From NCBI GenBank assembly GCA_019058245.1, contig JAHPZJ010000015.1, positions 62,581 to 126,580 on the forward strand: a stretch of 64,000 bases of DNA. The letters run 5' to 3'. A program made the position numbers and the translations under genes. Numbering within the stretch: position 1 is the first letter of the stretch; every line of letters starts with the position of its first letter. Under the pieces are notes generated by a model, which was given only the letters and a program-made list of their open reading frames with translations, had not been told where the DNA came from and ran no database searches. This DNA is from Promethearchaeota archaeon (lineage in GTDB: Archaea; Asgardarchaeota; Lokiarchaeia; Sigyniarchaeales; SOKP01). Below are positions 11,554 to 14,297 of this stretch, piece by piece.

Positions 11554-12426
11554 ATGGTTGATATAACCACAGCAGTAAAAGATATACAAGATAAATATAA
11601 AGTAATTGGTAGGACTGAAGAATTAAAGCAAATTGTTTTAGCACATTCAGTAAATAAAAATATTTTAATAGAAGGAGAAGTGGGAGTCGGTAAAACTAGA
11701 TTAGCGAAAGCCATTGCAGAATATTATGACACTAATTTTTATCGAGTCGATTGTAGCGAAGAATTACTACCTCATAACCTTGTTGGATATTTTGAACCAC
11801 CATTAGTAATTGCAAAAGGATATATTGAAGATTCATACAAAAATGGACCATTAGCTTTAGCTATGATGAATGGGGGTTGCTTATTCATAAATGAAATAAA
11901 CCGGATGCCAGAAAGCACCCAAAATTCGTTATTAACATCATTAGACGAAGGAATACTTAAAATACCTAAATTAAAAACCATTATAGCTCATAAAGATTTC
12001 TTTGTTATCGCAACTCAAAATCCGTCTGCGCATGTTGGAGTCACGGTATTAGGCGAAGCCTTAAAAGATCGATTCATTTGGATAAATTTGGATTATCAAA
12101 GATCTGAAGAGGAAATACTAATTATCAAACAAGAGTCCAATTTGAACAGCGGTAATGCTGATAAAATTGCTGCACTTTCACAACAAGTCATCCAAATAAC
12201 AAGAGAAAATACTTCTATCCGGAGAGGGAGTTCAATAAGAGGAGCTATTGATTTAGCTACCTTAATTAATCAATATGGTAATAGTAATAGTACTAAAAAT
12301 TGGGTTGAAGCTGCTATAATGGCACTATATAATAAAATTGAACTTGAAGATGGACTAACTCAATCAAAAAAGGAGATAATTACTAATATTGTACTAGCTG
12401 TATTGAATAAATCGGATTTTCAATAA
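11554..12426 (+). CDS. MoxR-family AAA+ ATPase
   Basis: Walker A GEVGVGKT, Walker B variant FINEINR, ATQNP sensor I, ALKDRF arginine finger. Confidence 0.9.
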   Translation: MVDITTAVKDIQDKYKVIGRTEELKQIVLAHSVNKNILIEGEVGVGKTRLAKAIAEYYDTNFYRVDCSEELLPHNLVGYFEPPLVIAKGYIEDSYKNGPLALAMMNGGCLFINEINRMPESTQNSLLTSLDEGILKIPKLKTIIAHKDFFVIATQNPSAHVGVTVLGEALKDRFIWINLDYQRSEEEILIIKQESNLNSGNADKIAALSQQVIQITRENTSIRRGSSIRGAIDLATLINQYGNSNSTKNWVEAAIMALYNKIELEDGLTQSKKEIITNIVLAVLNKSDFQ

Positions 12427-13535
12427 TCGATGATTTCTCTGAGGAAGTATCTGAAGAGATTGAGAAAAGACTGCATGTTAGACTAACCGAAAGTAAACCA
12501 GATAAAGAAATTTTAGAGTATGAAATAATCCGTAAAAAAAGAAAAAAACCAGATTATTATAAACATCTTGCAAACACACTAGATTACAAACAAATCAAAG
12601 AATTAACATATCTTGCTATAAAACATAAAAATCTTGAAGCTCTTATGGGCTTATTAAAAGCGAACGTATATGCTTCAACAGATGCTTTAGACACTGAAGA
12701 AGGAGTACAATTTTTTTCAGAAAAAGCTGCTGAATCAGGTGATTTTATGCCAGAAGTCTATTTTTTTATTAGACGTCCGATATCAGAAAAATATAAATCA
12801 GTTTTTAGAAGATTAGCACGTCAAAGTATTTTAAAATTATCTTTAAAAATTACAAGCAGAGGAATAAGAGGTCAATTTAAAAAGACAGTTCCTTATTATC
12901 AAATGGGTATGCCTGAATTTAGCATGGATGAAACTATTCAACATAATCCGTTAAAAATTTATGAAAGAAATTTAAATTATCAAGATATATATGGAATTGA
13001 AAGAAAACGACAAAAAAGAAAAGTAGTATTGCTATTGGATACAAGTGGTAGTATGTATGGACGTTTGTTGCTTAATGCCGCACTTACAACATCAGTTTTA
13101 GCATATAACATGGAAAAAGAAGACTTTTCTATAGTTTTATTTAATTCAACTGCAATGGTCATGAAAAAAATCAATAAAAAAAGACCTATTATTTCAATAA
13201 TTGATGATATTTTAGATTCTGAAGCTGTTGGCTTTACAAATATCTATATAGGATTGGAAAAAGGTCTGAAAGAATTAAGAAAAATAAGAGAAAATAGAAA
13301 AAGTCGTTTTGGTATATTAATAACAGATGGTATTTACAATCGCGGTGAAGATCCCGTAATCCTAGCAAAAAAATATCCAAAATTACATGTTATAGGAATG
13401 CCTGCTGATAATGATGCGGATCAAGGTATTGAGAAATGTAAAGAAATCGCTAAGGCAGGTAGGGGTAAGTTTTATGCCGTAAATGATTATAAAGAAATCC
13501 CAAGAGCTCTGATAGAACTATTATCTCAAACTTAA
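12411..13535 (+). CDS. vWA-domain protein (CoxE/ChlD-like); frame open from 12411, first ATG only at 12645
   Basis: MIDAS LLDTSGSM, TNI..GL, LITDG; 78 stop-free codons upstream of the ATG, overlapping the end of the MoxR gene in the -1 frame. Confidence 0.85.
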   Translation: MGFSIIDDFSEEVSEEIEKRLHVRLTESKPDKEILEYEIIRKKRKKPDYYKHLANTLDYKQIKELTYLAIKHKNLEALMGLLKANVYASTDALDTEEGVQFFSEKAAESGDFMPEVYFFIRRPISEKYKSVFRRLARQSILKLSLKITSRGIRGQFKKTVPYYQMGMPEFSMDETIQHNPLKIYERNLNYQDIYGIERKRQKRKVVLLLDTSGSMYGRLLLNAALTTSVLAYNMEKEDFSIVLFNSTAMVMKKINKKRPIISIIDDILDSEAVGFTNIYIGLEKGLKELRKIRENRKSRFGILITDGIYNRGEDPVILAKKYPKLHVIGMPADNDADQGIEKCKEIAKAGRGKFYAVNDYKEIPRALIELLSQT

Positions 13536-13715
13536 GTTTGAATTTATAATCATATTTTCCATAAAGATATTCTTTTACACTTTTTAATAATGAAAAAGTC
13601 TTTAAAAGTAATAATTTATTAGATCTATAATTAAAATATATCTTAATTATTTAAGATTATATCACTTTTGAAAATACTCAGATAAATTATCAATATTTTT
13701 TATGGTGAACCTTTC

Positions 13716-14297
13716 ATATTTGAAGAAGATAATGGCTATAAATATATTTTTAAAGTAGTTTTAATCGGAGCAGGTGGAGTTGGAAAAACATGTATTGTTC
13801 GAAGATTATGTTATGATACGTTTACTCTGAATACTCAATTAACTGTTGGAATAGATTTTTATACATATAATTTACCGATAATAGTTGATGGTCAACAATC
13901 CAATGTAAGACTTTCAATATGGGATTTTGGGGGACAAGCTCACTTTAAGACTCTTTTTGACTATTATATTAAGGGAGCAAATGGAATATTTTTAGTCTTT
14001 GATTTATTAAAAATGCAAAGTCTTCTTGATTTAGACTGGTGGTATGATAAGTTAATAGAAAATGCTATGATCAATCAACCTAAAATTCTTATTGGAACTA
14101 AACTTGATCTGGTAAATCAAGTGGAGCCTGGATTTGTAATTGATGAGTTATTTATTAATGAATTCATTGAAAAACATAACGAGCATGAAATCATTAAAAC
14201 ATCATCTAAAGATAATGTTAACATTCGAAAAATTTTTAAAGAGATGGTTAAAAAACTATTAGATTTTCAAGAGTTTGACTATGAAAGATTACTTTAA
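13716..14297 (+). CDS. Rab-like small GTPase, tandem copy 1 (real gene is longer than the 14013 ORF; candidate ATA start)
   Basis: In frame upstream of 14013: YIFKVVLIGAGGVGKT..TVGIDF..WDFGGQ, then GTKLD and TSSK; frame open from 13686 with no ATG/GTG/TTG before the P-loop. Confidence 0.85.
   Translation: MFEEDNGYKYIFKVVLIGAGGVGKTCIVRRLCYDTFTLNTQLTVGIDFYTYNLPIIVDGQQSNVRLSIWDFGGQAHFKTLFDYYIKGANGIFLVFDLLKMQSLLDLDWWYDKLIENAMINQPKILIGTKLDLVNQVEPGFVIDELFINEFIEKHNEHEIIKTSSKDNVNIRKIFKEMVKKLLDFQEFDYERLL

Follow-up and report, generated by a model that had tools for sequence, protein, structure and literature searches.

A probable programmed −1 ribosomal frameshift site between a MoxR-like AAA+ ATPase gene and a VWA-domain frame in Promethearchaeota

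In a 64,000-nucleotide (nt) stretch of a Promethearchaeota archaeon genome (assembly GCA_019058245.1, contig JAHPZJ010000015.1, positions 62,581 to 126,580; hereafter the window), the 3' end of a gene for a MoxR-like AAA+ ATPase overlaps a long reading frame for a protein with a VWA domain. The comparison of orthologous loci suggests that this junction is very probably a programmed −1 ribosomal frameshift site. Most ribosomes would stop at the TAA at 12424, releasing a free ATPase of 290 amino acids (aa). A minority would slip by −1 with the tRNA-Phe on UUU 12418–12420 re-pairing on UUU 12417–12419, so that the next codon read would be TCA 12420–12422, and would yield a 660-aa chain consisting of the ATPase, an acidic disordered linker, a helical domain and a VWA domain with its metal ion-dependent adhesion site (MIDAS). 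The slip is probably promoted by the stop adjoining the slippery codon, an arrangement known as a shifty stop, and by an RNA structure a few bases downstream. A first-pass annotation of the window had proposed the frameshift; the interpretation is supported here with refinements, and the three comparative tests that the annotation had suggested all came out in its favour. The features of the window that define the junction are the following.

11554–12426, + strand: open reading frame (ORF) of the MoxR-like AAA+ ATPase, 290 aa, the zero-frame product (from the ORF list, the translation and Pfam).
12414–12420, + strand: proposed −1 slip site G_GAT_TTT, with the conserved core T_TTT at 12417–12420, one sense codon ahead of the stop.
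12424–12426, + strand: zero-frame stop TAA of the AAA ORF, one codon past the slip codon.
12420–13535, + strand: −1 frame after the shift, 371 codons and a stop, which gives 660 aa together with 11554–12420.
12645–12647, + strand: first ATG/GTG/TTG of the VWA frame, an ATG at codon 79, the start chosen by gene callers.

The AAA ORF ends with AAA TCG GAT TTT CAA TAA. The VWA frame is closed upstream by the TAA at 12408–12410, is open from 12411 to its stop at 13533–13535 (374 codons), and lies in the −1 frame relative to the AAA frame with an overlap of 16 nt, the stop included. The conceptual shift product thus consists of 289 + 371 = 660 aa in the order AAA, linker, helical domain and VWA. 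When calculated from the trinucleotide frequencies of the window, the probability that the 78 codons ahead of the first ATG contain no stop was 2e-3, and the probability that they contain neither a stop nor a start was 5e-5. Of the 57 stop-to-stop frames in the window that reach 150 codons or more, only two have a longer leader, and the median leader measures 5 codons. The coordinates, the frames, the 78 start-less codons and the position of G_GAT_TTT given in the first-pass annotation were all confirmed from the sequence, and its junction peptide (...NKSDF/SIIDDFSEE) and product length of 660 aa match the translation of the shift product.

The junction was then compared in 78 orthologous loci of the phylum, 38 of which come from the window's order (23 loci of the same genus and 15 from three other families, 40–50% identity) and 40 from other families. 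The results showed that the VWA frame is in −1 relative to the AAA frame in 75 of the 78 loci, and that a U_UUY motif (usually NNT_TTT) lies near the AAA stop in 74 of the 78, spanning 17 families and 36 genera. All 38 loci of the order set are −1, with NNT_TTT as the last, second-last or third-last AAA codon and a short to moderate overlap, and among the other families 37 of 40 loci are −1, with U_UUY near the AAA stop in 36 of those 37. The AAA stop follows the Phe codon by 0–2 codons in all −1 U_UUY loci except L056 (5 codons). One −1 locus, L075 (family f5), has A_AAC_CCU and nearby TTG codons instead and is ambiguous. A full-length open VWA frame was found in nearly all of 40 relatives searched in the order, and an open VWA frame of 360–392 codons occurs in 189 of the 301 Promethearchaeota genomes sampled (E ≤ 1e-20). 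The −1 overlap with a slippery U_UUY at the AAA 3' end and without a conserved start codon holds in 74 of 78 loci and 17 families.

The heptamer itself was less constant. Its first G is A in several loci of the same genus, and the order set contains GGAUUUU, AGAUUUU, AAAUUUU, CCAUUUU, UCAUUUU, CCUUUUU and CCCUUUU, with GAU_UUU_UUC in GC-richer genomes; GGGUUUU and UUUUUUC occur beyond the window's family. Several families have a canonical X_XXY_YYZ heptamer (A_AAU_UUU, C_CCU_UUU, G_GGU_UUU or U_UUU_UUC). The base 5' of the Phe codon is U throughout the U_UUY loci, including the GC-richer lineages with GAT_TTT_TTC. Since the heptamer varies between loci, the conserved element is U_UUU (U_UUY) and not G_GAU_UUU; of the heptamer named in the first-pass annotation, the slippery core at the AAA 3' end is conserved and the full seven bases are not. 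GGAUUUU is the −1 frameshift signal of dianthoviruses. Their heptamer is identical to that of the window and is followed by a structure at a similar spacing, whereas only U_UUY is conserved among the orthologues described here.

As the assemblies are derived from metagenomes and fused forms of the gene exist elsewhere, the separate frames could in principle mark a pseudogene, or a fused gene broken by an indel in assembly. We assign this explanation a negligible probability: dozens of assemblies made independently in different studies, single-contig genomes included, show the same arrangement with a zero-frame stop just past the site, and both reading frames are under purifying selection. The recurrence of the arrangement excludes the indel against which the first-pass annotation had advised a check.

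The fused forms were of use in their own right. In family f24 (L081 and L082) AAA and VWA are encoded by a single ORF of 724–732 codons, which reads ...FFR... through a T6–T7 run. An exhaustive search with the VWA frame returned 732 relatives, including many proteins of 560–711 aa with an N-terminal AAA_5/AAA_3 and a C-terminal VWA domain; a first search for longer relatives, with a lower length limit of 656 aa that nearly shuts out the expected size, had given no fused match. The 660-aa shift product aligned as one high-scoring segment pair across the junction with P0036, P0028, P0113, P0039, P0037, P0031 and P0106 (E 1e-74 to 1e-134), for instance over residues 4–657 with P0028 (38% identity, E 2e-134) and over residues 3–657 with P0036 (E 1e-128), and P0036 reads ...SNSDFF... 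exactly where the window has ...NKSDF. All seven are single-chain proteins with AAA_5 and VWA, and their sources name them MoxR-like ATPase; an Anaerolineae bacterium is the source of one. In-frame fused homologues, which the first-pass annotation had recommended seeking, thus exist both within the phylum, as the f24 ORF, and as these seven end-to-end matches.

In three families the VWA frame is instead +1 relative to the AAA frame, namely f31 (L072–L074), f22 (L083) and f23 (L084), where the junction reads UUU_UUU followed by CGG, CGA or CGC. Such UUU_UUU_CGN junctions would be suited to tRNA-Phe slipping by +1 ahead of an Arg codon. At the f31 loci, a TTG directly after a stop in the VWA frame could be a genuine start instead.

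To the gene callers the VWA protein begins at ATG 12645 and has 296 aa, in which case the 78 codons upstream would be an untranslated relic. The public representative P0003 (289 aa), which begins at the equivalent of residue 86, is a truncated call of this kind. We analyzed the stretch from the overlap to ATG 12645 in 22 sequences of the same genus, and the entropies at VWA-frame codon positions 1, 2 and 3 were 0.35, 0.13 and 1.02, respectively, a pattern indicating that the 78-codon extension is under purifying selection as coding sequence in the VWA frame. The extension is also conserved as protein across the phylum. The ATG is not conserved, and the first ATG/GTG/TTG after the slip is scattered 18–110 codons downstream within the genus. 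In family f19 the first start comes 92 and 204 codons past the slip, with the MIDAS at about codon 200.

The predicted structure agreed with these results. The VWA-frame protein was modelled by AlphaFold2 with 21 homologues (mean predicted local distance difference test score, pLDDT, 84.7), and the model comprises a disordered acidic segment (residues 1–28), a helical domain (31–148) and a VWA domain (195–374), encoded as follows.

12420–12494, + strand: acidic linker SIIDDFSEEVSEEIEKRLHVRLTES, predicted to be disordered (pLDDT below 50 at P0001 residues 1–13 and 18–28).
12501–12854, + strand: alpha-helical domain, P0001 residues 31–148 (pLDDT about 84–96, helices).
12993–13532, + strand: VWA domain with intact MIDAS, DTSGS at 13038–13052 (Pfam VWA 5.4e-10, 40.2 bits against a cut-off of 23.8).

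About 48 residues of the helical domain are encoded 5' of the first ATG and make up the opening helices of this domain, whose pLDDT is about 90. Since the ATG is residue 79, inside the predicted helical domain, a start there would cut a folded domain. It is extremely unlikely, in our view, that the gene callers' model is correct. In the VWA domain the metal-site residues D210, S212 and S214 (DxSxS), T276 and D306 are invariant in the alignment. The best fold matches of the VWA model included BatB and NorD in NorQD complexes among other VWA domains, with Rea1-MIDAS as hit 16.

The stretch just past the slip site carried a further constraint on top of the coding one.

12421–12477, + strand: stretch with suppressed synonymous variation, which holds the invariant GAUGA at 12429–12433 and candidate stems.

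Within the genus the third-position entropy was 0.35 from 0 to +30, 0.65 from +30 to +60 and about 1.0 elsewhere, so that the extra synonymous constraint spans about 55 nt past the slip. In most other families a hairpin is evident, which begins 8–10 nt past the U-run and has a conserved CCGAUGA at its end. The hairpin differs in sequence from lineage to lineage, with stems such as GGAGGA/UCCUCC, GGGAAUUC/GAAUUCCC, AGGACAU/AUGUCCU, UCCCGAG/CUCGGGA, GGAGAU/AUCUCC, GGCUC/GAGCC, AGGAAUU/AAUUCCU, AAUCUCAG/CUGAGAUU and GAGAUCU/AGAUCUC. The window's family lacks the segment that encodes this hairpin; there, GAUGA lies 9 nt after the slip and weak candidate stems follow just downstream. In the window one candidate stem pairs UUUCUC 12434–12439 with GAGAAA 12462–12467, and the hairpin of minimum free energy pairs UCGA 12427–12430 with UUGA 12460–12463 and UCUCU 12436–12440 with AGAGA 12455–12459. 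By eye, L080 has a partly compensated stem, CUUCUCC/GGAGAAAG. We consider 12421–12477 a probable frameshift stimulator, with these stems as candidate folds in the window's family.

To assess the structure across lineages, the fold energy of the 55 nt 3' of the slip was ranked against in-gene control windows in 36 genera without selection of loci. The median percentile was 0.17 (Kolmogorov–Smirnov p 7e-7), and the family median was below 0.1 in 7 of 17 families. Shuffle z-scores of 75-nt folds were not significant at most single loci, and thus the signal is seen only as positional enrichment across lineages and as covariation. The latter was examined in 17 loci of nine families that had been picked by eye for in-register hairpins. 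A 5-bp stem was paired in 91.8% of cases, compared with 36–68% in slid controls; all five pairs vary on both sides, and there were 24 compensated cells versus 7.2 ± 2.9 in shuffles (0 of 500). Despite the bias of this sample, such varied stem sequences at one position appear hard to explain without a conserved structure. Covariation thus points to a putative stimulatory structure in most families. A covariance model built from the 17 loci retrieved mainly its own seeds and their close kin and is therefore of limited value as independent support. The junction has no match in Rfam.

The GAUGA past the slip or the hairpin is nearly universal, and its Asp is invariably encoded by GAU, including in genomes that otherwise favour GAC (background GAT fraction 0.2–0.5). 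With the invariant GA on the 5' side of the stem, the motif resembles a kink-turn or box C element. Just beyond the hairpin a Met codon (...SSM, ...GRM) is present at L054, L056–L058, L043–L047 and L068–L071. We also considered the AUG within GAUGA, which lies in the AAA frame past the stop and has a Shine–Dalgarno-like GGAGG in the 5' arm of the hairpin, as a gene start, and rejected it because the ORF that it opens has 5–70 codons and is not conserved.

It could be argued that RNA polymerase inserts an extra U at the run, which would make some of the mRNAs in-frame fusions, and the T6–T8 runs at L046, L081 and L083 are in line with such transcriptional slippage. In the window and in most families, on the other hand, the run has only four Us, far shorter than the runs known for polymerase slippage, and a conserved hairpin at a spacing typical of ribosomal −1 shifting together with a nearby stop are ribosomal hallmarks. 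Also in favour of the polymerase is the precedent of the chlD sites, which are long homopolymers with an efficiency that climbs with run length (PMC3711429). We regard transcriptional slippage as very unlikely and infer that it is the ribosome that slips.

The first-pass annotation had offered termination–reinitiation at ATA 12423 as its alternative. In such a scheme two separate proteins would be made: ribosomes that had just stopped at the overlapping TAA would begin the VWA protein at ATA 12423 or ATC 12426, without any fusion. The ATA overlaps the stop as ATAA and is present in nearly all loci of the window's family. This codon, however, is no more than what the −1 frame reads across the final base of the codon ahead of the stop and the first two stop bases, and in the window's family it follows automatically from CAA + TAA. 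Its equivalent is GTA in L078, and TTA, CTA, GTA or TTG in other families; since ATA 12423 is not conserved, and neither is any other near-cognate start, initiation there is unlikely. Reinitiation also fails to account for why a U always precedes the Phe codon, why the −1 relation holds across 17 families, why the hairpin stands 8–10 nt past the U-run and why in-frame fused orthologues exist. We judge it quite unlikely that reinitiation accounts for the junction, although less so than the other alternatives discussed above.

Several observations weigh against the programmed −1 frameshift, for which the support is wholly comparative. U_UUU alone is a weak slippery site. The fold of the window is modest (−8.2 kcal/mol, percentile 0.21, shuffle z about 0), and the 55-nt fold test gave no clear hairpin in f3, f4, f8 and f9. 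The p-values of the fold and covariation tests are optimistic since related genomes are not independent, and the 17-locus covariation overstates generality, because its alignment was selected for in-register hairpins. The three families that need a +1 event imply that one mechanism cannot cover the whole phylum. Finally, a Met about 21–25 codons past the slip is kept in f9, f18, f26, f28, f29 and the +1-frame f31, and therefore separate initiation of a linker-less VWA protein may also occur.

The possibility also exists that the junction is an ancient recoding switch with three frame states (mostly −1, in-frame in f24, and +1 in f22, f23 and f31), in which the hairpin with GA and GAUGA forms a kink-turn bound by L7Ae, an abundant protein of archaea, so that the shift would be tunable and protein-dependent and would produce an AAA_5 ring with a single tethered MIDAS arm. 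The GA–stem–GAU–GA pattern is invariant in the alignment; the same bases encode conserved Glu/Asp, and the non-canonical helix pairing of a kink-turn beyond the G·A pairs was not evident by eye. We hold this elaboration to be unlikely. If true, a single gene would encode a midasin-like machine in the prokaryotes most closely related to eukaryotes.

The identity of the ATPase was examined by profile and structure comparisons. The AAA protein matched Pfam AAA_3 (9.7e-21, 74.5 bits against a cut-off of 27) and AAA_5 (3.9e-20, 72.7 bits against a cut-off of 22), and its relatives in the PDB were the MoxR-like 2r44, NorQ, CbbQ and the AAA domains of midasin. Walker A is GEVGVGKT in the window and follows the pattern GxVGxGKT. 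Walker B is non-canonical, with I-N-E in place of D-E (CLFINEINR, 11875–11895), and N-E is found in 70 of the 78 loci, which come from 17 families, so that in this clade Asn systematically stands in for the Mg-binding Asp next to an unchanged catalytic Glu. These matches identify the predicted upstream protein as a MoxR/GvpN/NorQ-like AAA+ ATPase. Two other assignments were tried and rejected. A ChlD/BchD/CobT chelatase was not indicated by TIGR02031 (22 bits, cut-off 499.55) or TIGR02442 (18–24 bits, cut-off 779.45). As to a specific kinship with midasin, the overall match of the ATPase (1.7e-37) is a sum over six AAA domains, of which the best scored 43 bits versus 65 bits for the bacterial MoxR-like 2r44, and a profile search with the VWA part does not retrieve midasin.

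The closest parallel among known systems is chlD, whose genes produce a short AAA and a long AAA–VWA subunit via frameshifting (Antonov et al. 2013, PMC3711429; Kuznetsov et al. 2022, PMC9227772), a precedent that the first-pass annotation had named and that is indeed present in the literature. As in chlD/bchD, one locus would provide two AAA+ subunits, a short one and, through a −1 event, a long one composed of AAA, acidic linker and VWA; in-frame fusions occur in other organisms, and the loci are usually annotated as two adjacent genes. The chlD sites differ in being poly-A runs of 7–11 A with run-length dependence, whereas here a U_UUY lies by the stop with a hairpin downstream, and the protein is MoxR/AAA_5-like and from Promethearchaeota rather than a chelatase of methanococci or bacteria. 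In archaea, Saccharolobus solfataricus fucA1 is the demonstrated cellular −1 frameshift and the sole case according to a 2021 review (PMC8211752). The present site resembles it in being located in a cellular archaeal gene with a slippery sequence and a nearby stem-loop. In fucA1, A_AAA_AAT restores a single enzyme in a narrow lineage, whereas two products would be expected here from a phylum-wide site. Full-text literature searches turned up no publication about frameshifting in either Asgard archaea or MoxR–VWA pairs.

In NorQ/NorD and CbbQ/CbbO, an AAA_3/AAA_5 ATPase likewise stands beside a VWA/MIDAS partner. CbbQ6:CbbO1 has one adaptor per hexamer (PMC4660213), NorD sits on a NorQ hexamer (PMC13036017), and NorQ/NorD acts as a remodeller (PMC9976466). 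In those systems the partner is a separate protein with its own start, whereas here it is apparently only, or mainly, a C-terminal extension of the ATPase. By analogy, the frameshift likely serves to fix the proportion of subunits in a single hexameric ring that carry the adaptor to those that are free ATPase: the tethered adaptor would be the counterpart of CbbO1 on CbbQ6 or of the one NorD per NorQ hexamer, and the frameshift would hard-wire the ratio. Midasin/Rea1 likewise combines AAA_5-type modules with a long, partly acidic linker and a MIDAS domain at the C-terminus, a likeness that is an architectural analogy only, since the per-domain scores favour bacterial MoxR.

If the programmed −1 frameshift operates as proposed, it would be a rare, deeply conserved case of cellular frameshifting in archaea, in the lineage closest to eukaryotes. 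It would correct the annotation of a widespread gene that is now called as a truncated VWA protein, and it suggests how a MoxR ring may obtain a fixed minority of adaptor-bearing subunits. The related families with in-frame, −1 or +1 arrangements provide natural controls, and the signal is easily assayed.

The genes around the AAA/VWA pair gave no indication of its target. No neighbour is conserved beyond the genus except a small GTPase gene that is also found in f20, and we therefore did not infer a client for the pair. This GTPase gene comes after the VWA gene at loci of the window's genus and of family f20 (L061–L063), and not in the other families examined. In the window its frame, 3' of the pair at 13686–14297, has 109 codons before the first ATG/GTG/TTG, which is the second-longest leader of the window.

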